From Candidatus Iainarchaeum sp. (lineage in GTDB: Archaea > Iainarchaeota > Iainarchaeia > Iainarchaeales > JAAZKV01): a DNA stretch of 34,708 nucleotides. The DNA is taken from the NCBI GenBank assembly GCA_018691995.1, contig JABHJM010000046.1, positions 1 through 34,708 of the forward strand, read 5' to 3'. A program made the translations under genes and the position numbers. Shown one piece after another: positions 3,203 through 26,171 of the stretch; the first letter of the stretch is position 1, and the number at the start of each line of letters is the position of its first letter. The notes below the pieces were generated by a model that made no database searches, had not been told where the DNA came from, and saw nothing but the letters and a program-made list of their open reading frames with translations.

Positions 3203-3209
3203 TTTTTTT
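3203..3209 (+). terminator. Oligo-T (T7) tract immediately after the RelE-like stop; archaeal-type intrinsic termination signal between convergent genes
   Basis: taa(3200-3202) is followed directly by ttttttt (3203-3209). The tract overlaps the stop of the convergent minus-strand ORF. Confidence 0.35.
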
Positions 3210-3705
3210 ATATTAATGAGGTAAGTTCTCCAATGAAATCTCCAACAGTTCCATTGTCTTTCATTTGCATTCCCCAGTAGTCGTCCATCCATATTATGTC
3301 TATAATAGTTGGCATAAATAGTTCAATTGCAATTCCAAGAACTAATGCAATTATTAGTAATATTAGAATATTTTTTCCTTCTTTTAAAAAATATTTTTTG
3401 TTTAATAAATCGTCCATTAATGCATTTCCAAATTTTACTCCTGCATATGTTGCAATTGCAATTGGTGCGAGAAAAACAAATATTGCGGCGTTACGTTCAC
3501 TTCCAAGTGCCAAACCAAAGAATACGTGTGGGATGAATGCGAAATATCCATACATTGCTGCTCCAAATAAAAAAAATCCTATAATAGCGAGTGAAATTGG
3601 AACGAATGAGAAAAAATTGTTTAATGGGAAAAAGAATCCCACTCCAAAAGCAATGAAGAGTGCAATTAAGCTTACTAAAAATAATGCGATTGTTTTTACT
3701 TCCAT
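3208..3705 (-). CDS. Multi-pass integral membrane protein (about 5 hydrophobic helices); weak resemblance to SpoIIM/DUF95-type proteins
   Basis: 165 aa made almost entirely of hydrophobic helices (IALFLVSLIALFIAFGVGFFF, ISLAIIGFFLFGAAMYGYFAF, AAIFVFLAPIAIATYAGV, ILILLIIALVLGIAIELF). The ATG is preceded by AGTGATAAA, identical to the leader of paralogue A. The IPHVFFGLALGSE segment only faintly recalls the SpoIIM PHGxxE motif. Confidence 0.7.
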   Translation of the reverse strand: MEVKTIALFLVSLIALFIAFGVGFFFPLNNFFSFVPISLAIIGFFLFGAAMYGYFAFIPHVFFGLALGSERNAAIFVFLAPIAIATYAGVKFGNALMDDLLNKKYFLKEGKNILILLIIALVLGIAIELFMPTIIDIIWMDDYWGMQMKDNGTVGDFIGELTSLI

Positions 3706-9800: not shown

Positions 9801-11028
9801 TAATAGTTCTTGAATTTTCTTGTGTAGCTTCAACAAGAGTTATAACTTTGCTTTCACCAGCACTAATACTTTCTCCGCCAGTAACTAAGTAGTTAGGGTG
9901 TTCTGCACTAATAACATAAGTTTCTCCAGCTGCAACATTAAAATTTGCAGTTCCAGTCATTCCAGTTGTCAGAGTTTCAACCGAAGTTAGTGTTGTTGCA
10001 AGTTCAAGCTTAACCATTGCTCCGCTAATTGGTAATCCCAAAGTGTCTTTAATTGTAATATTAATTGCTGAATTAGTGCTCTTTTCAAGAGTTGCATTAA
10101 AAGTAATTTGTCCATTTTTTGTTAATTCTTTTATTTCTCCAAGTGCTTTTCCATCATATGGTTTATAAGCTCCAAGGGAATCAGTTACAACAATATAATA
10201 TTTTTTTGTTGAAACGTCATTAAACACTACAGTAGTTCCAGTGTTAATAGCAGTTTTTTGTGGGATTCCATCTTCTCCCATTAAATCAATTTTAAGTCCA
10301 TCAGATAAATCTGTAGCAGTTAATACAACAGTTACAGTTCCTACATTGTCTGTTTGATCTCCAACAATAACATTTTCTACTCCAGAAAAACTCACACTTC
10401 CTTGTACAACAGTGTGTCCTGATACAGAAACAATTTCTATATTTTGACAATTGCTAAAATCAGCATTGAATTTTCCATTAGTATAAAGTGCAGTGTAAAT
10501 AGCATTACTTCCGGCACAAGAATAATTTAATGTTCCGTTTCCAGAAATGGTTTGTCCACTAGCAGTTTTTAGTGATACTGCTTTTGTAATTGAAACATCA
10601 TCAAGAGTTAGAGTTAATTCTTCTTTTTCTCCAGTAGAGATAGTTGCAGTGATTGTTCCATAACCATTTTTTTCAACTTTAACATCATAATCTTCTGGTG
10701 CTAAAATAAAATTTGCTTCTCCGTTTGAATTTGTGCTCAAAAAAGAAACTTCGTCTCCGTTAAAAAATACTGTTACTGTTGCACCAACAATTGGATTTCC
10801 ATCTTGATCTTTTATTGTAAGAGAAAGTGGTGCTCCCGAAGTTAATGCAAATGTAAATGCGAGCACGACAATGATTAAAATAATTAGTGCGATAAAAGCA
10901 GGGAATGTTGGAACTCCTTTATTCTCAAGTGAATCAACAGCACTGCTAACTCCCGGTATTTTTTCAGTGAGTGCGAACCATTTATCTTCTAGAGAAAAAT
11001 AAGCATCTTTTATTGCATCCCCAACCAT
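3832..11028 (-). CDS. Giant membrane-anchored surface protein, paralogue B (2398 aa)
   Basis: Uninterrupted 7.2-kb ORF. ATG 11028 has a GTGAT box 5 nt upstream. The N-terminus carries YFSLEDKWF ... VPTFPAF plus a TM helix (IALIILIIVVLAFTFAL). Repeated CarboxypepD_reg/Ig-like beta-sandwich signatures follow: LSLTIKDQDGNPIVGATVTV, INITIKDTLGLPISGAMVKL, ITVITKDPTNDPVNNVRITL, IKLNVINNQREALRGVNITA, NVSIEIKSDNDILETLRTNSQGMATYDL. Then come the family motifs VHVRTGNAS, AKWIES, LWYRAWAKG. Many Cys and N-x-S/T sequons suggest an extracellular location. There is no C-terminal TM or sorting signal. Confidence 0.9.
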   Translation of the reverse strand: MVGDAIKDAYFSLEDKWFALTEKIPGVSSAVDSLENKGVPTFPAFIALIILIIVVLAFTFALTSGAPLSLTIKDQDGNPIVGATVTVFFNGDEVSFLSTNSNGEANFILAPEDYDVKVEKNGYGTITATISTGEKEELTLTLDDVSITKAVSLKTASGQTISGNGTLNYSCAGSNAIYTALYTNGKFNADFSNCQNIEIVSVSGHTVVQGSVSFSGVENVIVGDQTDNVGTVTVVLTATDLSDGLKIDLMGEDGIPQKTAINTGTTVVFNDVSTKKYYIVVTDSLGAYKPYDGKALGEIKELTKNGQITFNATLEKSTNSAINITIKDTLGLPISGAMVKLELATTLTSVETLTTGMTGTANFNVAAGETYVISAEHPNYLVTGGESISAGESKVITLVEATQENSRTITVITKDPTNDPVNNVRITLKTMDGTIVGEKNTGADGKAFFYNLEIGSYYAYAIKDGFDGVTSTRITLLPREANELPITMDIGKGTIKLNVINNQREALRGVNITAINYFDGTDEGVSSTNEEGIATFDIRADKKVYFEIELSGHMDYFTTSIYPDEGSTIDKEIVLVASSGKMSLTMIGLYSGDTVVSNSDREVSQGTYTAKLLLEVPKGSFSEAGVHVRTGNASNNTTNLMEEDPAYIGEVYTSAKKIIKGTTYTPPDGYNVDSQNYTNGNAKWIESIFKNPKEGVYEVEVDVTVTEINPNVGIDLWYRAWAKGSSLLKDPQSNIGGHELYLGAKNYLLSSGAANLCGDTFCKSYSVQTISGNNTGKIQYITNQMSAKQDTSYVLMANLINYSGKALNSSVLDIDGSGITIDGITVNGVEYDEDDEIILGTLSVDSFTQVSIAFSTTQSGSGSINLLVNSATKTELEETIAINVKANKTFKLDIIPKEIIPYVTNSLFFEANDGNTPLSNVSIEIKSDNDILETLRTNSQGMATYDLSPPSAGDVITFTAQKEGYDEVVFEKDVDEKIILLVPTEIDETIKIGEVASITQKILIENATVESLKITDISVEGEVADYLEITIDDIVGEIISADSDLNFNIKLKPNQTAKKLAAPKTVEGEVEIDVEVVSAGQEFEQELPIKIRLSMPGYLDSDNCLSITPGEVTFTTSTTEVSETLTLKNNCAAEGIDVALHNVEAKINESSKFGTIFLSGSGFNSISLSDGFVELAEYLASNEEEELTLRFVPTSSASSGTQKLTLSVEGKNVPEEGEEEKVRAKVNVDLTMSDLSECIEIEEPSGGMTLDIAGWNLGYNRIVNSNMSSYAQGYQGFNRGRMPYGMQSSIPFMNQGSGSTAYEENSFTIKNNCALDVEIDLDPDSKLNVSEEEFEISAGDDETITVTPGYTLGSYNIKINAKVADSEEAEERIDTVSVQVRRLGDVDDDCIKISTSTLEFNSLIYESKKYKVYNYCYSSGLQLTRGANAVTVQCDAQTSRVNPTQSAPYFQTGQQYQGLYQTGYPTTGGFGNNYQSYLGGQSCSGNSCSMVSGTRVYSRTVSDDSSTETLIFEVMPNAQYIPQRKLFDARTQSYGLFNSIANIRDWATQTDARTRVYGRINVEYSNQYGSTQCKQFPVEIEDMWRIGESIDSLVNWGDTSASPGECVSQNQRTNSLNVKEYWKGKGGSNPHGAIPGTEYNEDNYTYIASPPAVTYGPASNTSFYPQSSYYQMLNKNDPKRASSKSKNCGYLDKLSDISHAASVGGVGIKVGTVGVGSHQRETKGANLAVTLNRSGMTDACVLISIPIKAKLSRAATFENEEITWMLTALVLRDKITPDMIKDIDKDCKKVGDTTLIDCQKKLDDLAKKYKDNKHAVNDITKELKAAGCNDFSSTAIQKAIDNAKTDTGKCEVSAETFGFNRIDEINAKEITKEEYGDYCEDKFCNNDMLHYYLERQYLELDSAIDVAKSGAVTGFCTGNTKKEVNSRKISELYKEANTDIIKSCTNTGLEFYTGTDNELVVLPYAISEEVLSDNEGEVKVIKEDPSTSDIIALNWMVDVLSDIETEEETSADELMIMVNKVNLETSTFKEDDAKALGMSKVEDNYYLPLSTYKEMNKEIYALGDTDACDTGGNCVVTFCGSEKTITPDTMKAISEKGALVRGVIEDKADEKDIRAIYNANPKLEKIFEIAKENKDVYITGIKAFDKPAEEFHKTFKATHTSEFFTGNDATTTLEPGKYDYNLDTTYCKEDRTMEVTLVRLEMDEKENKASDNVLLQEGFKVGEDTSLQYSTNAVIVEADIGGGAIFYKRTPVQVTVTTSGGAKAIVYNPTEPLTTSDHLITWNGSMTDTKLSGNTFSQTIPVSLQEQTFNGIYYYPNAGSLSIMLNQGNGSVSAKALILSNKTSALESMDNGKHAKVSIGTLTGPTLKNVIEWTKEQKVACISADGQTINWNEAELVK

Positions 11029-11144: not shown

Positions 11145-12554
11145 CTAAGGCTTACAATATTTTGGACTTGCACTACTAGTGCATCGTGCTGTTCCAGAAG
11201 CAGGAGCACTATAAAGTTCTGTTGTTATTCTAATTTTATAACGAATAGTTTTTCCTTTTACAATATAAAGTTCATTTCTTTCTTCAAATGCAACATCAGC
11301 TTCAACCCCTCTCATTTTTCCACAGTAAAGTTTTCCACTTGTTGTTCCTTCAATTATTTTTGTAGCACCACTTTCAACACTTGCAAGGATTGATTTGAAA
11401 GGACATTCATCAATTTTTACTATTCCATCAATATCAGGTTCAAGTCCATTAACTCCCCAAGTAAATTCTCCTGCATAATCAGGTCCATTAATATTAAAAA
11501 ATTCTAAATCATCAGTGTATTGTGCATCAAGTGCGATTGCTTTATCACAAATGGCTTGTTTTGCATGTGCGTTAAGACCAATATTTGCCACAGTTCCTCC
11601 TCCAGCATTATATTCAATTAGTCCTGCAGGACGTGATGAGAGAGTTTGCATTTCATTTTTACTAGGGCTTGCAGGACATTCGTGCCCATCCCACTTTCCG
11701 CCACCACCACCATTAGGGTTAGTTCTTGGAACACACCCTCCATCACAAAAACCAAGTTTTGCATCAACTAGACTACCATTTACATTTTTCATTGCCTCAG
11801 CATTCCTTCTTGCAACAAATATTGCTTTGAAAAAACGAAGAGGAATATAAATCTTAAGTCTTGTTTTTGGCAAGATTGGTAATTTTGTTTCTCCTTTTGT
11901 AATAAGATCTTTTACAACAATTTTTGGTAAGTCTTCATAAGTTTCATCTTTTACACAATCAAGTGGAATGTTAAAGTAAAATGTTCCAAGTTCACATTCT
12001 CCTGCGCCACAATCAACAACTTCTAAAAAATCATCGCCAGTAGTTGCTAAACAATCAATTGCTTCATTAAGTGCTTTTGCAGTATTTTCTCTTGCAGTTT
12101 GATCTTTACTGCTAAGAGAAACGTGATATCTTCCATAACTTCCTTCATTAAATTGAAGTACTGTTCTATTTGCAACAAATTCTATTACTGCATCAAAATC
12201 ATTTGCGCCCCCAGCGTCAGTTAAAAGTATTACTCTTTCAAAATCATTTACAATAGCATCCCAATCATTATAGTTAGTGGTCGTTAAAATATTAAAACCA
12301 GGATCATTATCAATTTCTCCATCGTCAAATGTTAGATAATCTTGCATACTTGAACGAAAATTATAATTAAAACTTTGAATAGCATCGCTTCTTGCAATAG
12401 CAGCTGCATCATTTAATTGAAAAGTGTTTAACATAAAGTAAAGTTGGTTTCCCATTTTGTCTTCTGTTGTTGTCATTGTACTAACAAGAACAACAGCGGT
12501 CATAATCATTATTGCTGCAACAAGTACAGTGAACATGTTGAATCCTTTTTGCAT
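11145..12554 (-). CDS. Large Cys-rich secreted protein with a class III (type IV pilin-like) signal peptide
   Basis: The N-terminus is MQKG|FNMFTVLVAAIMIMTAVVLVSTM: a short basic n-region, Lys-Gly at -2/-1, Phe at +1, then a long hydrophobic helix. This is the prepilin-peptidase (PibD/FlaK-type) substrate pattern. The rest is a ~440-aa globular part with many Cys (DCGAGECELG, FCDGGCVP, ECPASP, YCGKM, RCTSSASPKYCKP) and a GGGGG loop. Confidence 0.7.
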   Translation of the reverse strand: MQKGFNMFTVLVAAIMIMTAVVLVSTMTTTEDKMGNQLYFMLNTFQLNDAAAIARSDAIQSFNYNFRSSMQDYLTFDDGEIDNDPGFNILTTTNYNDWDAIVNDFERVILLTDAGGANDFDAVIEFVANRTVLQFNEGSYGRYHVSLSSKDQTARENTAKALNEAIDCLATTGDDFLEVVDCGAGECELGTFYFNIPLDCVKDETYEDLPKIVVKDLITKGETKLPILPKTRLKIYIPLRFFKAIFVARRNAEAMKNVNGSLVDAKLGFCDGGCVPRTNPNGGGGGKWDGHECPASPSKNEMQTLSSRPAGLIEYNAGGGTVANIGLNAHAKQAICDKAIALDAQYTDDLEFFNINGPDYAGEFTWGVNGLEPDIDGIVKIDECPFKSILASVESGATKIIEGTTSGKLYCGKMRGVEADVAFEERNELYIVKGKTIRYKIRITTELYSAPASGTARCTSSASPKYCKP

Positions 12555-12598: not shown

Positions 12599-15500
12599 TT
12601 ATCCACTTTCTGCGAATGGTTCCCAAGCACTAACTAGTCTGAAAAAGAATTCTGCTTTTTTTGGATCTGTGTTAAATATTTTTTTAGCAATTTCTTTTGT
12701 TAATGAAACATTAGCTTCGCCTTTTACTTCTTGGGTTAATTGAGTAATTTTGTTTTTCAAAAATGTTGATTTTCCAAGTAATTCCTTTTCTTTTTCACTT
12801 TCCTTATAGTCATCGCTAAGTACAACAATTAATGATCCGATCCAATGTTCTCTTGCATAAACAGCATTATCAATACTAATTCTTCGACTACTTTCCTTGT
12901 GTGAATAGGTATAGATTAACTCTTGTGTTGTTGGTGCTTGAACCATTTTTATAATATCTTCAATTTCATCAGAATCATCAAAGAAATCATTGTTTTGACT
13001 CAAAACATCGCGTAATTGACTTGGTTCAATATTTATTAGATATAATCTAAGTTTTCTTTCTTCAGGCATTTTACTATGTAAACTCTTATCCCAAACAAGC
13101 AGTGTTCCGTTTAGATTCTTTTCTTTTCCACTTAATGCTTTTATCATTTCTGCTTTTTCTTCATCAGTGTCAACCATATTATAACTTGGAATAATTCTTT
13201 CTTTTGAATCTTCTTCACTAAGAACCATTTTGTATGTTGCTCCTTTTAGTAAAGGGTCGTCTCCAAGAACAGTAATTTTTTTCTGAAGTTCTTCAGTTGA
13301 TTCTCTTGCACTTCGATTATAAGCATACATTCCAGCATAGTTTGAAACAACTCCACAAACAACTCCTCTTCCAAGTTCTTTCCAAAGTCGACTTGATTTA
13401 ATTAAATTTTTGAATTTAGTGCTTCCCTTTGTAGGTAATTTTACATCTGCTTCTTTTGCAGCTTTTGACATTTGTTTTGTTACTCCTTCATAAATATCAT
13501 CAATTGAACTATCAATACTTCTAATTGCTTCTCCTGCATTCCTTCTTGCTGCAATATTTGCACGAGAACGAATAGTTGATTTTAATTCAGAAACATCAAT
13601 TCTTGTTGCTGCATCTTTTGCTGCAGTATAATCAGCAGCACTACTAAATCTTCTACTAGCTTTTGCTGCATCGGCAAAGTCATCAGTTTTTACTTTGAAT
13701 TGTGAATAAATTTCTTTTCTTACTTCATCTTCCATTGTTGGACTTAATCCAGAAGTACTTAATACGTCGTCCACAACACTCTTTGCTTCACTAATACTCA
13801 TGTCTCCAGTTCCAGCTAGAGAAGGAGTAGCATCAATTTGTGCAGAAACCTTGTCTGAAATAATTTTTGCTGAATTAATTTGTTGTTGTGTAGTACTTCC
13901 AAGTGTATTAAATGCGACTTCGGGATCATCAAGGATTGTTGTCGCCCTAGTTTTAATTCCAGCAATATCGCTTATTGATTCTCCTTTTTCACTTCCAATT
14001 AAAAGTTCCATATTAGTTATTTTTGTACTGCTCTTTGAAGCACTACTATTTTCAAGTAATACTTTTTTGAGTTCAACATCATTAATTCCTTTTTGTATTG
14101 CTTTAGTTGCATCTTTTTCATTGACTACTCCAAAGTCTCTTAGTAATTTGAAATTCTTACGCTTTAATCCAGAAGAATAAGCATCTTTTCCACTTTTTGC
14201 AACTCCATCTTTAAATTTAGTAGCAACGTCACTTGCAACTTTTTCGATTGCATCATCACTTGCATTTGGGAAACTACTTCGTAGTTGAGTTATTAGTTTT
14301 CCTTTAACAATAGTGTCAGTTTCGCCGGCCAAGTAACTTGCCGTTCCAGCATTCCATCCCCAAAGTCTACTTCCAGCCCCATATAATCGTGCTACTCCTC
14401 CAGTACTTCCTCCAGCAACTAATGCAGGCGCATAACTTTTTGGCTCATAAGGTTTAGCTTGTGAAGTTTGAAATGGTATTCCAATGAATGGAATTTCACT
14501 AAGGAAAGCAAATGTTTTCTTAAATGCTGGATAATTGCTTGCAAAATCATCCTTAAACATAAATGCAGCTGGAATAACACAATCAGTAACAGGTGCAATC
14601 ACAGCTCCCCAACCAGTTGTTAGGTTACATGCAGCAGCTGTTGCACTACAAACTCCAAGGTAACTTGTAATTGCTTTTTTCTTTGCTTCTTTTTCATAAT
14701 TAAAAGTTGCTTTATTTGATTTAGTTCCTTCTTTTGTTATTTCGGCAACATCTTCTTCTCGTAATCCTGAATCTGCCATTCCTTTATAATATTCTTTCAA
14801 ACTTGGTATTGGATTAATGCTATTATTCCAACTTATAGTAAAATAATAAGGGTTCTTTTCTCCTTTTTTACTTATTTTATCCTTTTTCTGCATTAGTATT
14901 TCTACTAAATCATCAGGGTGAAGTGTTCCAGAATTAATTTTGATTAATCCATCAGCGTCCTCTGTTCCACGTGCTTCTCCAGCACTTTTGTTCATTGCAG
15001 TAACAACAAATGTTGCTCCATTAGCAGTAGTGTAAGTTGATTCTCCACTATCTTCGACTTTTTCAAGTGAAGGGTATGCACAAATTTTCAGATCTCGCAT
15101 GAATCGTTTGTCTTTACTATTCGCATTTCTTGTTAATTGTAATGGATATGATGTTGGTTTGGTCACATCTCCTCCTTCAAAAATTATTTCATAATAATAT
15201 TTTCTTGATTTTGAATCAACACTAGGATCTGTTTCTTCATCAGTTTTTGTTTCATCTTCACTAGTTTCTTCTGTAACCGTTTTGTTAGGATTTGTTACAT
15301 CTTCAATTGTAATTCTTTTTATTCCTTCAAAATCTTTAATTTCGTTATCTCGTCCAGCAATATCAAATGTTATTGATTCTGGAATAGGTGAACTAATATC
15401 TCCATAAACACATCCTCCTCCTTTAGCAAATAGCATTACTTTGTCTGGAATGTCAAGTTTAAGTCTTCCAACATCGCTTGCTTCACTTAGTCGTACACAG

Positions 15501-18500
15501 TTATGTCCTTCTCCGCTTTTCACAAGACAATTGTTTCCAAACGATCCACTCATTGCATCAGAAATCATTTTTGATAAACTCTTATGGAATGCTTCTTTTT
15601 CTGTATCGCTCATTCCGCTTACTTGTGAATTAACTTTTACTTCAATTGTTTTCTTTTCTCCACCAAGAATACACACTTCAGCCAAAGCATTTGTTAATGC
15701 TCCTTCACTTATTTTAATTTTGTTTCCTTGAGGGGTTGTTGTAACTCTAGTTTTATCTTTAAAGTGTCTTTCTGCAAGTCCTTCTCCAATTGATTTTAAG
15801 TTAGTTTCAGCATTAATTGTTGTAAGCCAAGTTCCCTTATTATCAGTTGCAGTAAATCCTTTGTCAATTGGAGTAAAGTTTGCTAAATTAACAATATCAT
15901 CAACACATTCAGGAGTAGTTAGTCCTCCTTGTTCTGCTAGATCCATTGCTCGAATAATAATTACTGGTGTTTGGAATGATAAAAAGTTTCCAGCTACAGG
16001 GAATGCCCCATCAATTCTAACTTTATAATATCCACAACCTTGCAAATCATTATCAATAAATACTGTTGGGATGGTGTAACCTGAAGCTGCTAAAAATTGT
16101 ATTGTTTCACTACTAACATCACTCACTTCAATTCGATAATCTCCTCCAGAGAGTCCTCCGCGTATTCCACTTGTTTGATTTGAAGTTAATTCACCAAGTG
16201 CTTCACGCAGTGCTCCAACGCTAACAACATCATTTTGTAAATATAATTCGAATGATTCTTGTTTCATTCCAACTTGTGCAAATGTACAGTAACCTTGTGT
16301 TTCACATCCAAATGTTTCCGATTGGCTTTGTTTTGAATAAGCATAAGATTCAGCTTTTCTTATTGCAGTGTCAAGTTTTTTTGCAATATATTCTGTAGCT
16401 TGCATAGCGTCACAATATCCATTAGAACAATCAGTGCTTGAGAGTTTTGGAACATCAATTGTAATTTCAGTATCCTCTCCGCCATCAACACATTCTTTTA
16501 CAGTGAGTCCTTTTGTTGCCTTACTATATTTGCCTGAATGATCTCCAGATGTAACATCAATGTTAATTGCTTCTGATTTAATTGGTGTTTGGCTAATATC
16601 AGTTATTCCTTGAATGAAAATAGGGTAACCCTTAAGGTTCATGTTTGGATTTATACTTCCAACACTAAGTTGAGTATGAACCATTGGTCCAGGAGGAACA
16701 ATTGTTGGTTGTACTCCAAGTAATAATCCTTGTGCTTGTGAAGTTGCACTAATAATTCTTACTGGTTCAGCACAATTGTTTTGTATAGAAATTTTTCTTG
16801 ATTTTGATAATCCTTCAATACTTAAATTAAATGTTGGATCATCAACAATATTTACTTTCAAACAATCAAATCCAGAATGATAAATTGTTGCATTTATTGT
16901 ACAAAGAGTTTCATTGTTACTTGTTGTATAATTTGTTACGCTTGGCCGATAGTTAGTTAGAGAATTGTATGTTCCACTTCCATTGTAGTAATTATTATAT
17001 TGTCCATATAAGTCTCTTTGTCCACTTCGATTGTTTAAGTTGCCCATTCTTCCAGTTACAACAACAGTTTGTTGAATTGGTTCGCTAAGTTTCGAATTTC
17101 CTTGTGCGAAGAGTACTTTTGTTGGAGTAATTGTTTGTCCAGCTTCAAGGTTCACTGCTCCAGAGGGTTCAACACTAAGTTTTGCTCCATTTGCCGTTCC
17201 TTGTATATTAAATCCAATATTTTGGATTGGAAACTGTGAGTTATTAGTAATGTAGAGTGGTTGTGCTGCTGTTGCTTTTTGTCCAACAGAGTTTTGTGTC
17301 ATCCAAAGTGTTACTTGTCCAGGGCATGATAATGCAAAGCTTGGATTGATTAAATTAACTTTAACATTAAGTCGTTTTGTTAAATAATTTGAATCATAAA
17401 TTACTTCAAAATTATAATTTTCGTTTAACCGCATTCCTCTTTCAACCAAGTTTTGTGCTCTTATTGTAATATTTTTTGTTTGTCCTGGTTGTAATGAAAT
17501 ATCATCAGAGTCAACGGCAATGTATGATCGGTTAGATTTTTCTTTTACTCTTTTTGTAAGCATTATTGCTTGGTCACAATTGTTTGTTGCCTCAACAACG
17601 TCAGAATCACTTGATCCAGCATTTCCAATTAAATTAATTGTTAAATTACTTGGTTCAAGTTTTAAACAATCAGAGTCAAGTTGTCTATTGTAAACAATAT
17701 TCATCATTGATGTTGCTTCAACTAAGAATTTTCCTTCAACGTAACCTTTAATTGTAATTTCAACAATTTCATCAATTGTTTCGCTACTTCCAACATATTC
17801 AATGTTAATTTGCACATTGTTCTTTTGTCCAGCGCCAAGAATAGGGGGAACCACAGCACTTATTTCAAAATTGTCTGTGTCGCCAATTTCATAAGAAATT
17901 TGGTTAATACTTAGTTCTGATAAATTTTCAAGTGGTTTTGTAACAATGTCTGTTTTTTGTCCAACCATCATTTTTACATTAATTTCTTCTTTAAAATCAA
18001 GAACCTTTGCTATACTTACAAGTAAAGTAGTAGTACTTGTACTAAACCGGGGGGCAGAAACTTCAACTGTGTAAAGGCCAGCATCTAAATTATTTTCAAT
18101 TCGATAACTTCCACCTCTTCCAGTTCCATCTTCTCCATTTCCACTAACACTCTTTACAACTTCTCCTTGTTTGTTTATAATTTTTACAAATGCATTTTCT
18201 ACTCCGCTAAGTCCTTCATCAAATACTTTCACAGTAAAGTTTTTTCCAAGTGTAACTAAAGTGTCACTAAGTTCAACAAGTAATTTCTTTTCAGTGACAA
18301 CTGTAAATGAAAGATCTTTTTGGATGTAAGCATTTCCTGATGCAATAAAATTAATATTTACTCCACCTGGTTGTTCACCAATAAAATAAAATCTTACTTT
18401 TTGCATAGAATCTTTTGTAACAGAAACTGCGATTGTTGATTCGCTTGTACCTTGTGTTAATAAATTTTCTACAAAGTTAAACGTTCCATTTTGTGTTCCA

Positions 18501-21001
18501 ATAAAAGATAAATTATTGTCAGTAGCAACACTTACTTGTAAGTAATCAGTTTCTTTTGCACTAAATTCTGCTTCAAGTGCATAAATTTTTCCTTGTAGTG
18601 CTTCAAAGCCAGCAGTGTCATAAAATACATCTTCAGCATCAACAAAGTTCATTGCAATACAAACATTGTCATTACATTCTGGTAGTGATTCGTATAAATT
18701 AAATTCTTCTGTTAGTGTACTAGCATATAATGCACTTTTAGTTTCACTATTCAATCCAGTTCCAAGATCCACATCTTCTGGAGTTCTATGATAATCATCT
18801 TGTAAGTTTGACCATGCACGATAATGGATTGGAATTTTCCCAGCAGTAAAATCGGCAACTCGGACTTTTACTTTTACAATATAAGTTCCTTTTGGATTAG
18901 AAATGGTTCCTTCAACCCATTTGCTTTCTTCTCCTTCGCTTGAAGTATTACTTCGATCAACTACTTCGTTTTCACTATAAGAGTATGAATAAACTTTTTC
19001 TGAATTACTCATGTCAAGTTCATAGAGAGCAATGTTTCCAGAATCTACAAAGTTAGTAGTATCATTCCCTACACGAAAGTGTACTCCGCCATTGTCTGCT
19101 GCAAGTGGAAATTTAACACTAAATCTTGCCCAAAAGAATGCTCCAGGAGTAAGTCCTTGTACATTATCTCCATTCTCATTTTCGATTCCTTCGTATTCAA
19201 TTGTTGGTGAAAGATCACTATCTTTGTTATACACAACAACTTCAATTACATCTCTTCCTTTTACATAAACATTTTCAGTAAAAGTATTTCCATCGCATAA
19301 ACTAATTGCTAGTTCAACAACTTCTTTATCTCTTGAGTTAAAAATTATTGTTGAATCAACAATGTTTCCGTCAAAGATAATTTCTCCACTAAGTTCACTA
19401 ATAACTCCTTTTCCACATATGCTTCCTCCAAGAGGGTCAATTAAATTTAGTTCAATAACATTTGGTTTTTTGCTCATTGCAATGTAAACTTTATTATCAA
19501 TTACAACATCTCCAATTTCAACAAGTTTATTTCCTTTGTGTGTTTTTGTTTCTGCCGTTATTTCATAAGTCTTATTTTTTTCTACAACAAAATTTGCATA
19601 TCCTGCAATACTTGTTTCAAGTTCATCAATTCCATATGGGAGTTTGTTTGCATCAGTTATTTCTTCTACTTTTATTTTTGCTCCAGAAATAGGTTTGCTA
19701 TACTTATCAAGAGTATAAAGATCAATTCTTGTTGAATTAACACTATTTATTTTTTCAAGAACAATACTTGCAATTTCTGTTGAACCAACACTAACCTTAA
19801 TTCTTCCTGGTAAGTGTTCATCATGTACTGCAGTAATATAAATATCGTCATTTGGATCCAGTCCACTAAATTCAACCCCATTTATTTTTGAAATCTTTCT
19901 CTCAATTTGATTTCCGTTTAAATAAAATAATTGAACAACTGCATTGTCAAGTCCAAGTCCCAAATCATTTAATACATTAACAAGTAAGCTTTCTCCACCT
20001 TTTGCAATTATAACGTCAATTTTTTCTTCAGCTCTTCGCAGGGTAAAACTAATGTCTTCTGAATCAGAATCATATGTGAGATATCCTTCTGCACTAGCAA
20101 CAATTCTAAGTGGGATTCCTGTTTGGATTTGTGTGGCAATTGCTCCTTGTTCAGTTACTCCATTTGTTATTTCAATTCCTGTTTGTTTGTTATATACAGA
20201 AATTGTTGCCCCGTCGATTGAAGTGGTGCCGTCACTTAGGGTAATTATTACATTTGCTTTTCCAACAAAACCATTTCCGGAAGGAGTAAGGGTTAGGTCT
20301 TCACGAACTCCTGCAATAAAAGTAATTGTTTGTTTTAATTCTGTGTACCCTTCGGCATTTACAGTAATTAGAATAGGAGTGTCTTCAGGTACTCCTCCAA
20401 TTCGAAAGATTCCATTTTGGTCAACGTTCATTGTCCATTCAAGGTCTTCCCAGTTAAGTGTTACTGTTGCATTTGTTACTTTTGAAGAAGTCTCAGAATC
20501 AGCCAGTCCTACAATTGCATTTATTCCAACAAAATCTTTTGTAAAAAGAAGTGCTCCTTTTGCATCACTTTCTCCGACCAAAATTTCTTCTTCTGCATCA
20601 TGATAACCTGTTTTTGATGCTTGTAATAATAATTTTGTTCCTGGGGCTTGTGGAACAAGTTGTATTACTTGTCCATCTCCAACAGTTTTATTTGTAATTA
20701 ACATTTCTCCATTTTGTGATTGTACTGAAAGTGAAACTCCATTCAAACTTTTTCCACCAGTGTCACGAAGAGTTAGTGTAAGTTCATCAACAGTTGTAAT
20801 TGGACTTACAAAAACCAAACTTAAAAGTAAGAGTAACATTACAACAATTGCGATTGTTACAATGAATGATGGGATTCCTTTTTCTTCAAAAAAATCTGAG
20901 TAAGTATAAACAGGGATTCCCTTATGGTCAAGTGCATCAAGAACAGTAAAATATTTGTCTTCAAGATGTGTATAAAAATTTGCTAATTTTTCACTTATCA
21001 A
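12599..21001 (-). CDS. Giant membrane-anchored surface protein, paralogue C (2800 aa, TTG start), with a ~740-aa C-terminal extension relative to paralogue B
   Basis: Uninterrupted 8.4-kb ORF. The start is TTG at 21001..20999, directly preceded by an in-frame TGA and a GTGAT box 4 nt upstream. The TTG start is supported by alignment of MISEKLANFYTHLEDKYF...GIPSF plus TM (IVTIAIVVMLLLLLSLVFV) with the N-termini of paralogues A and B. CarboxypepD_reg-like repeats are present (TLTLRDTGGKSLNGVSLSVQ, ANVIITLSDGTTSIDGATISV, LLVNVLNDLGLGLDNAVVQL, FTVKVFDEGLSGVENAFVKI). Family motifs are VHFRVGNDT, SKWVEG, IHYRAWSN, ALYAST. The body ends at FTISWNNS, which aligns by eye with QTINWNEAE at the C-terminus of B. 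Confidence 0.9.
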   Translation of the reverse strand: MISEKLANFYTHLEDKYFTVLDALDHKGIPVYTYSDFFEEKGIPSFIVTIAIVVMLLLLLSLVFVSPITTVDELTLTLRDTGGKSLNGVSLSVQSQNGEMLITNKTVGDGQVIQLVPQAPGTKLLLQASKTGYHDAEEEILVGESDAKGALLFTKDFVGINAIVGLADSETSSKVTNATVTLNWEDLEWTMNVDQNGIFRIGGVPEDTPILITVNAEGYTELKQTITFIAGVREDLTLTPSGNGFVGKANVIITLSDGTTSIDGATISVYNKQTGIEITNGVTEQGAIATQIQTGIPLRIVASAEGYLTYDSDSEDISFTLRRAEEKIDVIIAKGGESLLVNVLNDLGLGLDNAVVQLFYLNGNQIERKISKINGVEFSGLDPNDDIYITAVHDEHLPGRIKVSVGSTEIASIVLEKINSVNSTRIDLYTLDKYSKPISGAKIKVEEITDANKLPYGIDELETSIAGYANFVVEKNKTYEITAETKTHKGNKLVEIGDVVIDNKVYIAMSKKPNVIELNLIDPLGGSICGKGVISELSGEIIFDGNIVDSTIIFNSRDKEVVELAISLCDGNTFTENVYVKGRDVIEVVVYNKDSDLSPTIEYEGIENENGDNVQGLTPGAFFWARFSVKFPLAADNGGVHFRVGNDTTNFVDSGNIALYELDMSNSEKVYSYSYSENEVVDRSNTSSEGEESKWVEGTISNPKGTYIVKVKVRVADFTAGKIPIHYRAWSNLQDDYHRTPEDVDLGTGLNSETKSALYASTLTEEFNLYESLPECNDNVCIAMNFVDAEDVFYDTAGFEALQGKIYALEAEFSAKETDYLQVSVATDNNLSFIGTQNGTFNFVENLLTQGTSESTIAVSVTKDSMQKVRFYFIGEQPGGVNINFIASGNAYIQKDLSFTVVTEKKLLVELSDTLVTLGKNFTVKVFDEGLSGVENAFVKIINKQGEVVKSVSGNGEDGTGRGGSYRIENNLDAGLYTVEVSAPRFSTSTTTLLVSIAKVLDFKEEINVKMMVGQKTDIVTKPLENLSELSINQISYEIGDTDNFEISAVVPPILGAGQKNNVQINIEYVGSSETIDEIVEITIKGYVEGKFLVEATSMMNIVYNRQLDSDCLKLEPSNLTINLIGNAGSSDSDVVEATNNCDQAIMLTKRVKEKSNRSYIAVDSDDISLQPGQTKNITIRAQNLVERGMRLNENYNFEVIYDSNYLTKRLNVKVNLINPSFALSCPGQVTLWMTQNSVGQKATAAQPLYITNNSQFPIQNIGFNIQGTANGAKLSVEPSGAVNLEAGQTITPTKVLFAQGNSKLSEPIQQTVVVTGRMGNLNNRSGQRDLYGQYNNYYNGSGTYNSLTNYRPSVTNYTTSNNETLCTINATIYHSGFDCLKVNIVDDPTFNLSIEGLSKSRKISIQNNCAEPVRIISATSQAQGLLLGVQPTIVPPGPMVHTQLSVGSINPNMNLKGYPIFIQGITDISQTPIKSEAINIDVTSGDHSGKYSKATKGLTVKECVDGGEDTEITIDVPKLSSTDCSNGYCDAMQATEYIAKKLDTAIRKAESYAYSKQSQSETFGCETQGYCTFAQVGMKQESFELYLQNDVVSVGALREALGELTSNQTSGIRGGLSGGDYRIEVSDVSSETIQFLAASGYTIPTVFIDNDLQGCGYYKVRIDGAFPVAGNFLSFQTPVIIIRAMDLAEQGGLTTPECVDDIVNLANFTPIDKGFTATDNKGTWLTTINAETNLKSIGEGLAERHFKDKTRVTTTPQGNKIKISEGALTNALAEVCILGGEKKTIEVKVNSQVSGMSDTEKEAFHKSLSKMISDAMSGSFGNNCLVKSGEGHNCVRLSEASDVGRLKLDIPDKVMLFAKGGGCVYGDISSPIPESITFDIAGRDNEIKDFEGIKRITIEDVTNPNKTVTEETSEDETKTDEETDPSVDSKSRKYYYEIIFEGGDVTKPTSYPLQLTRNANSKDKRFMRDLKICAYPSLEKVEDSGESTYTTANGATFVVTAMNKSAGEARGTEDADGLIKINSGTLHPDDLVEILMQKKDKISKKGEKNPYYFTISWNNSINPIPSLKEYYKGMADSGLREEDVAEITKEGTKSNKATFNYEKEAKKKAITSYLGVCSATAAACNLTTGWGAVIAPVTDCVIPAAFMFKDDFASNYPAFKKTFAFLSEIPFIGIPFQTSQAKPYEPKSYAPALVAGGSTGGVARLYGAGSRLWGWNAGTASYLAGETDTIVKGKLITQLRSSFPNASDDAIEKVASDVATKFKDGVAKSGKDAYSSGLKRKNFKLLRDFGVVNEKDATKAIQKGINDVELKKVLLENSSASKSSTKITNMELLIGSEKGESISDIAGIKTRATTILDDPEVAFNTLGSTTQQQINSAKIISDKVSAQIDATPSLAGTGDMSISEAKSVVDDVLSTSGLSPTMEDEVRKEIYSQFKVKTDDFADAAKASRRFSSAADYTAAKDAATRIDVSELKSTIRSRANIAARRNAGEAIRSIDSSIDDIYEGVTKQMSKAAKEADVKLPTKGSTKFKNLIKSSRLWKELGRGVVCGVVSNYAGMYAYNRSARESTEELQKKITVLGDDPLLKGATYKMVLSEEDSKERIIPSYNMVDTDEEKAEMIKALSGKEKNLNGTLLVWDKSLHSKMPEERKLRLYLINIEPSQLRDVLSQNNDFFDDSDEIEDIIKMVQAPTTQELIYTYSHKESSRRISIDNAVYAREHWIGSLIVVLSDDYKESEKEKELLGKSTFLKNKITQLTQEVKGEANVSLTKEIAKKIFNTDPKKAEFFFRLVSAWEPFAESG

Positions 21002-21098: not shown

Positions 21099-21743
21099 TC
21101 ATTTCCTAGCCCAAATGAACCACAATACATACACAACGATTATGTATACAAATAAAACTAGTCTAAACAAGGTATCGTGCGCAATTTCAAACACTGCTTC
21201 ATTTTGACTCATAATGATGTTTAGTGTAACAAAAATTCTAAGGAGATTAAATACATAACCAAGTATTACTGCAACAATTGCCCCAATGACTTTTTTTCGC
21301 CACCCTATTCCAAATGAAGCAAGTATTGCACTTACAAGAATAATAATTTCAAGTGCTCCGCTACAAAGCCAAGAAATAAAGATAGTTTGAGAAGTTTGAT
21401 TAATTTCAAATGAATAAGCTGTTTCAAAGTTTTCAAGTTCTACATTTCCATTACTCACTGTTTCTATTCCTTGTGCACTAAGTAGGCCTTGTGCACTTCT
21501 TCCAGTACTCTCTTGAATAGAAGTTGAAAAGGGTATAGTAATTCCACTAAGTATTAAATAAAATATTAAAAATCCTAAAACAAACCAAACAAATTGTTTC
21601 TTTTGATCTTTCACAATTTTCTTTTCTTGTTCAACAAAATAATTTTTTATCTTATTAGTAGTTTCACAAAACATACATTTTTCGTTTTCTTTACAAAATA
21701 AAATTGGCTTTCCTTTTTTAGGGGTAGATTTCTTTTTTACCAT
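21099..21743 (-). CDS. Minimal exosortase/archaeosortase-family protein (putative Cys transpeptidase)
   Basis: 214 aa. The C-terminal ~100 aa show the family-defining order of catalytic residues within TM helices: ISWLCSGALEIIILVSAILA (Cys in a CSG motif), about 40 aa, NLLRIFVTL (NxxR), about 20 aa, AHDTLFRLVLF (His). The N-terminus is basic with a Cys cluster (CKENEKCMFC), followed by one TM helix and a ~60-aa loop. Confidence 0.65.
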   Translation of the reverse strand: MVKKKSTPKKGKPILFCKENEKCMFCETTNKIKNYFVEQEKKIVKDQKKQFVWFVLGFLIFYLILSGITIPFSTSIQESTGRSAQGLLSAQGIETVSNGNVELENFETAYSFEINQTSQTIFISWLCSGALEIIILVSAILASFGIGWRKKVIGAIVAVILGYVFNLLRIFVTLNIIMSQNEAVFEIAHDTLFRLVLFVYIIVVYVLWFIWARK

Positions 21744-21781: not shown

Positions 21782-22030
21782 TTACTGTTCGTCTTTATGA
21801 TAAATTTCTATAAAAATTATTTTATTATCCTTTTCAATATAAATGTAGGCTAATCGAAAGGGTGAAATATAAAGTTCTCTTGTTCCTTTTCTACCATATC
21901 TCATGGGTTTTCCAAGGGTTGGATTCTCAATTACTTTTTCAATTTGTTTTTTTATTTTTAGTTTAGTTTCAGAATCTTTCATTTTTTTTATTTGTTTTAA
22001 AAATTGTTTTCTATATCCATAAATTACCAT
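21782..22030 (-). CDS. RelE/ParE-family toxin
   Basis: 82 aa. ...IEKVIENPTLGKPMRYGRKGTRELYISPFRLAYIYIEKDNKIIFIEIYHKDE matches the canonical nP..Gk.l....g.relri.pyRl.Y.i......i.i..i.H pattern. It overlaps the upstream antitoxin gene by 7 nt. Confidence 0.75.
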   Translation of the reverse strand: MVIYGYRKQFLKQIKKMKDSETKLKIKKQIEKVIENPTLGKPMRYGRKGTRELYISPFRLAYIYIEKDNKIIFIEIYHKDEQ

Positions 22031-22290: not shown

Positions 22291-22465
22291 CAAATCACCT
22301 AATGTAAGATGTGTCTTACTTTTTATAATACTTTGTTTTGACAAAATTTAACTTTTAAAAAAATATAATTTTTTTTATTTTTAAATCTAATTTAAAGTTC
22401 GTCGATTGCTAAAATTTTATTTAAGAAAGTGGTTAAAAAAAGAAGGGGGTCTAATATTGATTAAG

Positions 22466-22744: not shown

Positions 22745-25051
22745 ATGAAGATTGGTGGAATGCAAGTTGGAGAGTATGTTGTAAAAAGTGTTGGTGGAAA
22801 GAGAGCACTTATTTTTGATTGTAAACATTGTCCATATAGGGCAAGCATTGCAGAAGATCATCATTGTCGTTTTCACGTTTTAAAAATTTTAGGACAACTT
22901 GAAGCAGATACAGTTGTTTTTGCAGAAGTATATGAGAGAGTATATGCAGAAGCACAAACAAAAATGCTAATGGAAGTAGCAAACCTTGCACAAAAGTTTG
23001 TTGTTCAAAGTATTTGGAGTTATAATCATTTAGGACGACCAAAAAAAGAATGCGAACCTTTCTTTCCAGAAAGACACAGAATAATGGTAAAAATTGCACG
23101 GGACCTAATTACATTCGATCCACTCTTAGCGTACCTAACTCTAATGGAGGAACTTAAGAAACAAGAAGTAAAAGTAAAACAAGGAAGTGCTGAATATATT
23201 GATTGTGCAGAACCCTATGTTGCAACTCTTGTTCAAATGAAAAATTCATTTGATATTTTAACACTTACAATAAAAGCAAGAAAATTATTAACAGAATTAA
23301 CCGAAATTCCAAATACAAAAGTAATGTACAAATCAATTTTTGAAGCAGAAATAAAACCTTCATTTATTGGATCAAAATTATCTTTTGAGGGGATGGAAAA
23401 TTTAGAATTAATGGATGAATATAATGTTCGTGAATCAACAGTACAAGTTTTTTCAGATCCAGATAGGGTAGAAAAAATTTATCAAATTAATCCACCTGAA
23501 TATTCACTAGCGCCAGACCAATATTTTATTCTTAGTAAAACTCGTGAAATAGTTGCATCGTATCGTCCAGGAAAAACATCACTTAGTACAGTTGCAACTT
23601 CAAGAAAATATTTTGAACGTTTATATGAAGCAACAATAAAAGAAGTTGCACAATTTCATAAAGTAAGATTAAGTCCGGGGGAAATGTCTTCACTAAGTAA
23701 AGTAGTAGCTCGTTACACAGTAGGTTATGGTATCCTTGAAGTACTTCTTAATGATAGACGTGTAACAGACATTTATCTTGATGCTCCAATTGGAGGAAAA
23801 CCAATTTATGTTGTGCATAGTGATTATGGGCAATGTCAAACAAATGTTACATTCACTGAAAACGAATCAAATTCATTAATTTCAAAACTTCGTGCAATGA
23901 GTGCTCGTCCATTTGATGAAGCACACCCAGTGCTTGATTTTGATTTACAAGATCTTGAAACACGTGTTGCAGTAATTGGGCCACCCCTCTCACCAAGCGG
24001 AGCAGCTTATGCATTTCGTTTACACAAATTAACTCCATGGACACTTGAACAATTTATTGATGTAGATTATCTAAACCCATTAGCGGCCGGAATGATTTCG
24101 TTCTTTATTGATATGCAAAGTACAACTTTAATAGCAGGTTCACGTGGTAGTGGAAAAACATCTTTACTTGGAGCAACTATTCAAGAAATTCCACAAAATT
24201 CTCGTATAATAATTCAAGAAGACACAATGGAACTTCCAGTTGATTATTTGAAAAATATTGGTTTTAATATTCAAAGACTCAAAACAAAAAGTGCAATTAG
24301 TGTAAGTAAAACAGAAACTGAGGTAGCACCAGAAGAAGCACTAAGAACATCACTACGTCTTGGTGACTCTGCACTAATTTTAGGAGAAGTAAGAAGTACT
24401 GAAGCAAAAGTACTTTATGAAGCAATGAGAGTAGGTGCAGCAGGAAATGTTGTAATGGGAACAATCCACGCAGATAGTGCTTATAGTGTATGGGACAGAG
24501 TTGTAAATGATCTTGGAGTTCCAACAACTTCGTTTAAAGCAACTGATATTGTAATAGTTGCTCGTCCAATTCGTTTCAAGGGGTCACTTACAAGACACCG
24601 TAGAGTTGTAGAAATAACAGAGGTAAAAAAGCATTGGGATAAGGATCCAGAAAGAGAAGGTGGCCTATTAAAGTTAATGTCTTATGAAGCAAAGACTGAT
24701 AATTTAGAATTACAAGAAGACAATTTAAAAGAAAGTGATTTGTTAAAAAAGATTCAAAAAACTTCAGGGTTAAGTGTTAATGATATTTGGTCAGAAATAA
24801 GACTTCGTGGAAATGCAAAACTATTTTTAGTAGAACAAAAAAGTGAACTTGATCTTCCAGAACTTTTAGAAGCAATTAACACTTCTAGTGGAAATAATAA
24901 ATTACTTTTAATGAAAGAAAAAATGATTGAAGAAGAAGGTAGTGTTAATTATGATCAACTTTTAGGCCAGTGGAAAAACTGGGTAACAACAAAACTTATT
25001 CCTCGAGTAAAAAGAGCTAGTGTAGCTAATAAGAAGAAAAAGAAAGAATGA
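22745..25051 (+). CDS. Type II/IV secretion-system ATPase family protein (archaeal FlaI/PilB/GspE/VirB11-like), unusually long
   Basis: 768 aa. Motifs seen: Walker A GSRGSGKTS (24137-24163), Asp box IIIQEDTMELP, Walker B-like LILGEVRSTEA, His box MGTIHAD. Upstream lies the N2-type domain VTDIYLDAPIGGKPIYVVHSDYG...VAVIGPPLSPSGAAYAFR. An extra ~330-aa N-terminal region carries a CKHCPY...HHCRFH cluster. A ~130-aa C-terminal extension ends in KKKKKE. A GTGAG SD-like box lies 4 nt upstream of the ATG. Confidence 0.85.
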   Translation: MKIGGMQVGEYVVKSVGGKRALIFDCKHCPYRASIAEDHHCRFHVLKILGQLEADTVVFAEVYERVYAEAQTKMLMEVANLAQKFVVQSIWSYNHLGRPKKECEPFFPERHRIMVKIARDLITFDPLLAYLTLMEELKKQEVKVKQGSAEYIDCAEPYVATLVQMKNSFDILTLTIKARKLLTELTEIPNTKVMYKSIFEAEIKPSFIGSKLSFEGMENLELMDEYNVRESTVQVFSDPDRVEKIYQINPPEYSLAPDQYFILSKTREIVASYRPGKTSLSTVATSRKYFERLYEATIKEVAQFHKVRLSPGEMSSLSKVVARYTVGYGILEVLLNDRRVTDIYLDAPIGGKPIYVVHSDYGQCQTNVTFTENESNSLISKLRAMSARPFDEAHPVLDFDLQDLETRVAVIGPPLSPSGAAYAFRLHKLTPWTLEQFIDVDYLNPLAAGMISFFIDMQSTTLIAGSRGSGKTSLLGATIQEIPQNSRIIIQEDTMELPVDYLKNIGFNIQRLKTKSAISVSKTETEVAPEEALRTSLRLGDSALILGEVRSTEAKVLYEAMRVGAAGNVVMGTIHADSAYSVWDRVVNDLGVPTTSFKATDIVIVARPIRFKGSLTRHRRVVEITEVKKHWDKDPEREGGLLKLMSYEAKTDNLELQEDNLKESDLLKKIQKTSGLSVNDIWSEIRLRGNAKLFLVEQKSELDLPELLEAINTSSGNNKLLLMKEKMIEEEGSVNYDQLLGQWKNWVTTKLIPRVKRASVANKKKKKE

Positions 25052-26076: not shown

Positions 26077-26171
26077 ATTTTATTAGCGGTTGTCAAACTT
26101 TAATAAACTTTCTTGTAGCATTCGTGTGTTTTAAGCGTAGTTATTACATGATTTATTTCCAGTGTCATTTC

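Follow-up and report, generated by a model that had tools for sequence, protein, structure and literature searches.

A minimal exosortase/archaeosortase-family gene is a constant member of a type IV pilus-like cluster with giant membrane-anchored proteins in Iainarchaeota

Exosortases and archaeosortases owe their definition to the C-terminal sorting tags with which they are paired. The contig JABHJM010000046.1 of Candidatus Iainarchaeum sp., which was analysed over its entire length of 34,708 bp (the window in the following), raises the question which protein such an enzyme may serve when the proteins encoded next to it do not carry a tag of this kind. It encodes a small exosortase/archaeosortase-family protein, here called the Xrt-like protein, 97 nt upstream of the gene for a giant protein (giant C; Table 1), and no open reading frame (ORF) in the 34.7-kb window was found to end in a transmembrane (TM) segment followed by a basic tail. 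Our analysis revealed that the Xrt-like gene is a constant member of a type-IV-pilus-like supercluster. Based on the sequence comparisons the enzyme may be responsible for the outer-face maturation of a membrane-anchored protein of this cluster, most likely giant C, a reading to which we assign a probability of roughly 0.4.

The preliminary description of this DNA, made without database searches, had placed the protein in the exosortase/archaeosortase family and had pointed to a CSG...NxxR...H pattern. Profile hidden Markov model (HMM) searches confirmed the family membership, with matches to TIGR04178 exo_archaeo of NCBIfam (42.8 bits, cutoff 23, E 4.9e-11) and to PF09721 Exosortase_EpsH of Pfam (28.2 bits, gathering score 25.7). 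The pattern corresponds to Cys127, Asn166/Arg169 and His189, and its order was found as described; in an alignment of 23 homologues sharing 45-75% identity these four residues and Asp190 are invariant. Furthermore, Cys, Arg and His are kept in the divergent Xrt-like proteins of the loci L041 and L042 and in the protein P0143. With its catalytic residues intact the Xrt-like protein presumably functions as an intramembrane Cys-Arg-His protease, possibly as a transpeptidase.

None of the named subfamily models (ArtA-ArtF, XrtA-XrtX) reached its NCBIfam cutoff with the Xrt-like protein. XrtX (168 model positions) scored 40.3 bits against a cutoff of 170, XrtF (174 positions) 36.1 against 90, XrtH (158) 32.9 against 86, XrtG (187) 32.5 against 102.75, XrtM (150) 31.1 against 125, ArtD (150) 26.3 against 125 and ArtF (166) 13.2 against 150. 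Since all of these models failed, the protein represents a new minimal subfamily outside all described groups. The PF09721 match spans only model positions 101-252 of 254, indicating that about 100 positions at the start of full-length EpsH have no counterpart in the protein. It is indeed much shorter than typical ArtA and EpsH proteins, as had been remarked, but its length is not unprecedented, since the best-scoring subfamily models are themselves minimal (150-190 positions, with 150 in XrtM and ArtD) and small size is thus already known in the family. The N-terminus had been described as basic and Cys-containing. The basic character is conserved across the aligned family, but the Cys-containing stretch (FCKENEKCMFCE) is confined to the closest relatives, P0002 and P0003, and is not a family feature. 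A conserved cytoplasmic amphipathic helix (..Y...QE[KE]KI....KKQF) precedes the first TM segment at residues ~30-50 (window 21590-21650), where the AlphaFold2 (AF2) model contains a helix at residues 24-45. A profile search of the sequences in the PDB and a Foldseek search with the AF2 model (best E 0.57) gave no relative of the protein.

Hydropathy analysis placed the four TM segments at residues 52-70, 126-144, 152-170 and 192-210. The AF2 model (predicted local distance difference test, pLDDT, 82; predicted template modelling score, pTM, 0.72) has helices at 47-90, 130-142, 148-179 and 185-213 and a small three-stranded sheet in the loop between TM1 and TM2. Averaged over the family alignment, Lys and Arg residues (K/R) number 12.6 in the N-terminus, 2.4 in the TM1-TM2 loop, 2.8 in the TM2-TM3 loop (7 aa), 0 in the TM3-TM4 loop and 3.0 in the C-terminal tail; the TM1-TM2 loop (~50 aa) also contains 6.2 acidic residues, and its cysteines occur only as 0, 2 or 4. 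This charge distribution clearly predicts an N-in orientation with the K-rich N-terminus in the cytoplasm. Because of the charges and the paired cysteines of the first loop, Cys127 at the start of TM2, Arg169 at the end of TM3 and His189 at the start of TM4 are predicted to lie at the outer face of the membrane, which is the accepted arrangement of the catalytic residues in canonical exosortases. The Xrt-like protein was also considered as a substitute prepilin peptidase; this was rejected on the predicted topology, because class III signals are cleaved on the cytoplasmic side and the triad is placed on the outer face.

The gene neighbourhood was compared between the window and its relatives. 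In the long contigs with homologues the order is the same each time, a divergently oriented ATPase gene being followed by the Xrt-like gene, the gene for a giant of 2,800-3,050 aa and a gene for a protein of ~475-490 aa. This order was confirmed by tblastn across 29 loci of GTDB genomes wherever the flanks suffice, and is seen in most of the 29. Starting from the other side, with the N-terminal 67 residues of the giant as anchor, 29 metagenome loci were found; 19 were informative, having at least 1.5 kb of upstream sequence, and the Xrt-like gene lies upstream of the giant gene in 18 of these 19. The synteny of ATPase, Xrt-like protein, giant C and a protein with a class-III-like signal, seen in dozens of loci, is newly described here; searches of the literature on DPANN archaeosortases, on exosortases associated with type IV pili, on pili and giant proteins of Iainarchaeota and on GGIII- and Heimdall-CTERM did not reveal a description of the cluster.

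The type-IV-pilus-like character of the cluster follows from relatives in which a T2SSF platform and several pilins are encoded beside the Xrt-like gene. In the divergent locus L042 the co-directional genes T2SSE, T2SSF, two small class III pilins, Xrt-like, giant, a 563-aa protein and a second giant are separated by gaps of 13-70 nt; the T2SSF protein matches PF00482 with 25.2 bits, equal to the gathering score, and the 563-aa protein is the orthologue of the window's 469-aa protein (p469). T2SSF homologues of ~800 aa with nine TM segments are encoded in L006, L018, L025, L036, L037, L038, L057 and L058. In some genomes the ATPase is followed by such a homologue and by five or six class III pilins. 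A T2SSF/FlaJ-type platform is absent from the 34.7-kb window. In other loci two or three GLUG-repeat proteins of 460-680 aa with QG/TIEYLVILG signals are encoded between the Xrt-like protein and giant C. The class III signals were recognised at the level of patterns, namely QKG/FNMF followed by a hydrophobic helix in p469 and KG/QAFS.FELL, QG/TIEYLVILG and similar forms in the relatives; in one relative Pfam Class_IIIsignal reached 20.3 bits, its threshold being 23.7. No candidate for a prepilin peptidase of the A24 family was found when the polytopic ORFs of the loci examined were inspected, and this enzyme may be encoded elsewhere in the genomes. The pilin block of four loci contains a family of 166-229-aa proteins (Table 1) with a conserved G(P/A)IGDDLPSL[IV]P directly before the TM segment, a design like the KG[IV]PSF plus TM of the giants.

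Three giants are encoded in the window, A being truncated by the contig end. According to a Pfam-type domain search they carry immunoglobulin (Ig)-like domains of the CarboxypepD_reg/Big_1 type, and hydropathy analysis predicted one TM segment for each at residues ~45-65 (47-65 in giant C, directly after KGIPSF). The preliminary description had noticed a conserved [VI]P[ST]F plus TM at their N-termini. This feature is real and recurs in all three paralogues and their orthologues, as part of a longer element of 45 residues that reads ..Y...E[DE]K[YW][FY]..L..L...KG.PVY...D..E..., then [VI]P[STF][FL], with the TM segment directly after; in the alignment the position of [VI]P[ST]F relative to the TM segment is invariant. 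The element is the most conserved stretch of giant C. Conservation is 0.78 in residues 1-40, ~0.5 in the Ig-like-rich ectodomain and 0.2-0.4 in the poorly conserved helical C-terminal third (last 900 residues). An HMM of the element matched the giants only among all ORFs of all loci examined. Searched against a set of 5.8 billion proteins, where hydrophobic words saturated the candidate list, its profile yielded only 11 contig-end fragments.

Since the Ig-like ectodomain must be outside, the anchor of the giants is N-in; the N-terminal element is thus predicted to be cytoplasmic, with [VI]P[ST]F at the inner end of the signal anchor and a ~2,700-residue ectodomain outside. The extreme conservation of the 45-residue segment fits docking to a conserved cytoplasmic partner, for which the ATPase is named by inference; the element may plausibly be read as a long leader of the class III type or as a peptide that docks to the pilus-type ATPase or platform. 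The K/R-G before the motif of the C-type giants resembles a prepilin-peptidase site; the A- and B-type paralogues do not have it.

Hydropathy scans of giants B and C revealed no TM segment beyond the N-terminal one, the C-terminus included, and p469 likewise has a single TM segment, at its N-terminus. Together with the scan of all protein tails in the window, this bears out the earlier observation that no complete neighbour carries a C-terminal sorting signal. None of the giant C orthologues has a C-terminal TM segment; their last residues form an amphipathic stretch of weak conservation (..IF......F..hS.W..). In the case of paralogue A the C-terminus lies beyond the window, and a 44-kb sister contig stops even earlier inside A. 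Its nearest homologue, in L039 (29% identical), consists of a 1340-aa protein and an adjacent 1210-aa ORF that ends in ...DATTQACIQ without a C-terminal TM segment. These two ORFs (L039 10001-17652) overlap by stop and start at 14020-14023; the gene is either truly split or only seems so because of a frameshift or a faulty assembly of the metagenome-assembled genome.

One substrate of ArtA is known to carry its signal away from the C-terminus (review PMC6098224), and by analogy a tripartite signal inside the giants was considered. Such an internal signal was rejected, as a second TM segment is missing; near residue 2140 the giants only have a stretch of weak hydrophobicity that contains Cys and a conserved DCGIPA. 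In giant C this stretch belongs to a conserved block at residues ~2110-2160 (window ~14500-14700; Y.G.C...S..CN ... DCGIPA.T.F[KR]), which separates the conserved 2,100-residue part from the highly variable helical C-terminal ~700 residues and could represent a site of processing or the boundary between two domains.

Taken together, the Xrt-like enzyme may be regarded as a fixed accessory component of a surface-structure cluster that would comprise a FlaI/TadA-type ATPase, a T2SSF platform, pilins with class III signals, a pilin-like protein of 470-560 aa and two to three giant N-anchored adhesin-like proteins. Its presumed role would be the maturation, at the outer face, of one membrane-anchored surface protein of this cluster. 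Giant C is the prime candidate because its gene almost always follows the Xrt-like gene. The likeliest action would be a cut at the extracellular end of the membrane anchor of giant C, by which the ectodomain would be released or handed to the pilus-like apparatus; the cytoplasmic [VI]P[ST]F would not be the scissile site. The co-occurrence of consecutive genes is an accepted signature of a dedicated sorting enzyme and its target (Haft preprint 10.1101/2023.06.07.544157). Furthermore, rhombosortase and MYXO-CTERM substrates depend on the type II secretion system (T2SS; 10.1101/2023.06.07.544157), which provides a precedent for a sorting protease coupled to a pilus-type machine.

Several points speak against this proposal. 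Neither a cleavage site nor a recognition motif was identified on the extracellular side of the anchors, and the residues after the TM segment of giant C show only loose conservation (many orthologues have TY.G.D, whereas others differ). With an N-terminal anchor, a sortase-type acyl-enzyme would hold the anchor peptide and not the cargo, so that the reaction would amount to simple shedding, unlike the known action of the family. Gene neighbourhood indicates a shared pathway and does not prove the identity of a substrate, and candidate conventional substrates are encoded near the Xrt-like gene in some relatives.

These candidates lead to the main rival explanation, according to which the enzyme cuts C-terminal tripartite signals on Sec-exported surface proteins encoded elsewhere in the genome and merely resides in a surface-structure locus, like EpsH in exopolysaccharide loci. 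Within 10 kb of the Xrt-like gene, four related genomes encode five proteins with a C-terminal TM segment and a basic tail. In L041 a 205-aa protein with a Sec-type signal peptide (9403-10020) ends in ...KNPSILP-ILLIATLIVAILF-RRELKNEKQKD, its gene overlapping the start codon of the Xrt-like gene by 20 nt, and a further protein (3-2138) ends in ...NLPSLPEE-TM-RIRINKNKN. The others end in ...SPNLTIP-TM-...GKK (L008 1552-2637), ...TM-NQIVKKKKNI (L004 3-3497) and ...TLGGG-IILIIL...-KKRKKNRFEKY (L032 3-1769; GG_III-CTERM NF041738, 18.9 bits against a cutoff of 22). Apart from the tail the five are mutually unrelated, as would be expected of cargo with a common sorting tag; an L037 homologue of the L004 protein does not have the tail. 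However, the tails do not share a consistent signature motif, none passes any curated sorting-signal model, and the proteins are not syntenic across the genomes, unlike the giant, p469 and the ATPase. Taking furthermore into account that the window encodes no such protein and that archaeal surface proteins commonly have C-terminal TM anchors where no sortase is present, we regard the conventional mode as less likely than a maturation of giant C, of which it is the main competitor. As a separate observation, the two L041 proteins, mutually unrelated and both encoded upstream of the divergent Xrt-like gene, share an ending of P-S-(I)L-P, TM segment and basic tail, and are possible conventional substrates in the L041 lineage.

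Besides a substrate encoded elsewhere, the preliminary description had considered that the enzyme acts on the N-terminal [VI]P[ST]F plus TM of the giants. Recognition, and perhaps cutting, at this site would be a mirror image of PGF/PEF-CTERM and would give the family a new mode of action. The motif resembles P-x-F motifs, keeps its position in the three paralogues and all orthologues, and belongs to an element found only on proteins genetically linked to the enzyme; it also abuts the TM segment without a spacer, as do, typically, the signals at which sorting enzymes cut deep within the membrane (10.1101/2023.06.07.544157). A cut at this site is topologically disfavoured, however, because motif and catalytic triad are predicted on opposite faces of the membrane, the location of the ectodomain fixing the anchor as N-in. 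The conservation of the element above that of the mature protein fits a docking or leader role better than a disposable sorting tag, and the KG of the C-type giants resembles the site of a prepilin peptidase, so that we consider this proposal unlikely. Equally unlikely is a non-proteolytic role, in which the protein would help to assemble the pilus-like machine or serve it as a small scaffold in the membrane, or would modify lipids or glycans. It would be in line with the finding of no substrate signal in the cluster, with the similar minimal size of the 22 aligned relatives and of the divergent relatives read, and with the family-specific cytoplasmic helix before TM1 (..Y...QEKKI....KKQF), which could contact the ATPase or platform. 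Yet Cys127, Asn166, Arg169 and His189/Asp190 do not vary although the sequences diverge by more than 50%, and the most divergent members keep Cys, Arg and His; this invariance argues for retained catalysis and makes such a role improbable.

A search of 5.8 billion proteins yielded 65 Xrt-like relatives of 184-257 aa, several of the named ones being labelled 'exosortase/archaeosortase family protein' by NCBI or JGI and originating from 'Candidatus Diapherotrites archaeon'. When 1.84 billion cluster representatives were searched exhaustively with a profile, 391 clusters matched at E<1e-3 and 116 clusters at E<1e-10, most of them with proteins of 160-230 aa; among ten clusters checked, all four with organism names belong to Diapherotrites/Iainarchaeum. 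The genus-named records among the 29 loci of GTDB species genomes are all Ca. Iainarchaeum, Ca. Forterrea or Diapherotrites. In the data seen here the subfamily thus appears to be confined to the Iainarchaeota (Diapherotrites, DPANN).

One relative, P0143, is a 1102-aa protein encoded on a single metagenome contig (L043 7134-10442). Its first 185 residues form an Xrt-like domain that keeps Cys, Arg and His. Behind it lie a basic linker, in which short duplications occur, a junction that is class-III-like (NSKG/FYAVTPFLGVIIIL) and a tail of ~860 aa; a T2SSE ATPase gene lies divergently upstream of this gene, too. The fusion was considered as Rosetta-stone evidence and set aside as weak, since the tail (~860-900 aa) is not homologous to p469 or giant C and only the junction is class-III-like. 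The duplications in the linker and the occurrence on one contig weaken it further.

Compared with known systems, the Xrt-like protein shares with ArtA of Haloferax volcanii, which acts on PGF-CTERM proteins, the TIGR04178/PF09721 signature, the TM-embedded Cys-Arg-His predicted at the outer face, the archaeal host and the link to large cell-surface proteins. It differs in being ~100 residues (3-4 TM helices) shorter, with the N-terminal part of the EpsH model missing; no ArtA-level score was obtained among the NCBIfam models, the genetically linked proteins carry neither PGF-CTERM nor another C-terminal tripartite signal, and the gene is embedded in a type-IV-pilus-like cluster. In length (150-190 model positions) and core it is similar to XrtX, XrtF, XrtH, XrtG, XrtM, ArtD and ArtF, and the best-scoring specific models, at 26-40 bits, belong to these minimal subfamilies. 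These scores are far under the cutoffs (86-170 bits), however, and the occurrence in DPANN archaea next to a pilus ATPase and giants sets the protein apart. To our knowledge, some minimal subfamilies (XrtF, XrtG) also have no recognised cognate sorting signal.

As in the dedicated enzyme/target pairs described by Haft, the Xrt-like gene and that of a large surface protein are consecutive in nearly all genomes examined, but the known adjacent targets carry a C-terminal tripartite signal, whereas the adjacent giant only has an N-terminal anchor. The systems of rhombosortase with GlyGly-CTERM and myxosortase with MYXO-CTERM likewise combine a membrane-embedded sorting protease with a pilus-type ATPase machine of the T2SS/type IV pilus family. 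They belong to unrelated protease families of bacteria with two membranes, act on substrates with C-terminal signals, and are coupled to the T2SS functionally, whereas the coupling described here is genetic only. Loci of archaeal type IV pili and archaella resemble the cluster of the relatives in the ATPase, the T2SSF platform and the multiple class-III-signal proteins around the Xrt-like gene; they differ in that no prepilin peptidase was found in the flanks of the Xrt-like loci examined. As far as a look-up of terms in the 2016 census of archaeal type IV pili (PMC4858521) reaches, large DUF2341 proteins are mentioned there, but the terms 'sortase', 'DPANN' and 'giant' are absent, and neither an exosortase-family gene nor an N-anchored protein of 2,400-3,000 aa came up.

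Table 1. Positions of the Xrt-like gene, its catalytic codons and neighbouring features in the window, and of one pilin-block family in related loci (aa, amino acids; TM, transmembrane segment)
Feature	Coordinates	Strand	Remarks
Giant paralogue A	3..2399	(-)	first 799 aa only (contig ends); N-terminal element ..DQV-VPSF-TM
165-aa polytopic membrane protein	3208..3705	(-)	between giants B and A; no family match
Giant protein B	3832..11028	(-)	2398 aa; ..ENKG-VPTF-TM; CarboxypepD_reg/Big_1 domains; no C-terminal TM
469-aa protein (p469)	11145..12554	(-)	directly after giant C; class-III (prepilin)-like N-terminus MQKG/FNMFTVLVAAIMIMTAVVLV
Giant protein C	12599..21001	(-)	2800 aa; TTG start; immediately downstream of the Xrt-like gene
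N-terminal element of giant C, residues 1-66	20804..21001	(-)	..EDKYF..LD.LD.KGIPVY.YSDFFE.KG-IPSF-TM
Minimal exosortase/archaeosortase-family (Xrt-like) protein	21099..21743	(-)	214 aa; ATG start; 4 TM
Codon of His189	21177-21179	(-)	checked directly in the DNA
Codon of Arg169	21237-21239	(-)	checked directly in the DNA
Codon of Cys127	21363-21365	(-)	checked directly in the DNA
Type II/IV secretion-family ATPase, divergent	22745..25051	(+)	768 aa; T2SSE PF00437 67.8 bits
G(P/A)IGDDLPSL[IV]P family	L006 454-1059		
G(P/A)IGDDLPSL[IV]P family	L025 625-1314		
G(P/A)IGDDLPSL[IV]P family	L036 1044-1544		
G(P/A)IGDDLPSL[IV]P family	L042 2192-2695		

The ATPase encoded divergently from the Xrt-like gene has a FlaI/TadA/GspE-like core at residues ~300-700 and an extra N-terminal domain. 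Its nearest solved relatives in the PDB are GspE of A. fulgidus (2oap), CpaF and FlaI, and the best NCBIfam model is FlaI with 144.9 bits, below the cutoff of that model. With ~1,200-1,300 tblastn bits across the loci it is the most conserved gene of the cluster. No support for p469 was obtained in the profile-HMM scans (Pfam, NCBIfam-type); its orthologues carry [KR]GFN[ML]F followed by a hydrophobic helix.

In the window a ParE/MazE-like pair and a HicB-like gene are inserted between the Xrt-like gene and the ATPase gene (21782-22669; ParE, MazE/AbrB-like and HicB-like). Toxin-antitoxin-like insertions beside the Xrt-like gene occur in several unrelated genomes. A HicB/HicA-like pair is found in L023 (1746-2196), and a 94-aa gene with a 112-aa zinc-ribbon gene is located in this position in L018 (10643-11250) and L041 (10757-11358). 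The intergenic regions around the Xrt-like gene seem to be a recurrent landing site for toxin-antitoxin-like pairs.

In L039 a 201-aa polytopic protein (9328-9933) is encoded at the position of the 165-aa protein of the window, the correspondence being positional only. Downstream of giant A, L039 encodes a 503-aa protein and five more small proteins with several TM segments (region 17700-19623), all without family assignment. The small polytopic proteins of the window and of L039 may be additional membrane parts of the apparatus. Beyond the ATPase gene, where T2SSF and pilin genes follow in other genomes, the window contains an island of lower guanine-cytosine content (25411-34700; 25-29% versus ~33%). 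It encodes a WcbI-like protein, a 1292-aa multidomain protein in which a class I methyltransferase domain is combined with a weak NodZ-like fucosyltransferase region, and several proteins without annotation, and may be a glycan-modification island.

The archaea of the host phylum are ultra-small and uncultured, and next to nothing is known of the biology of their surfaces. Together, the pilus ATPase, the platform, the pilins and anchored proteins of 2,400-3,000 residues with a variable distal end would make a plausible apparatus for cell-cell attachment. In the most far-reaching version of the proposal, an exosortase-family enzyme would have been recruited by an archaeal type-IV-pilus-like machine and dedicated to maturation or coupling there, acting on N-anchored giants (with a signal anchor or of the class III type) or pilin-like proteins and not on C-terminal tripartite signals, which at present seems unlikely. 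If true, the family would thereby gain its first member with a non-C-terminal substrate, and sortase-assisted pilus assembly would possibly have a counterpart in archaea. An intact active site together with linked partners that do not carry a tag would mean either that recognition in the exosortase/archaeosortase family is wider than its definition by C-terminal tags implies, or that DPANN archaea possess a sorting signal that has so far gone unrecognised.

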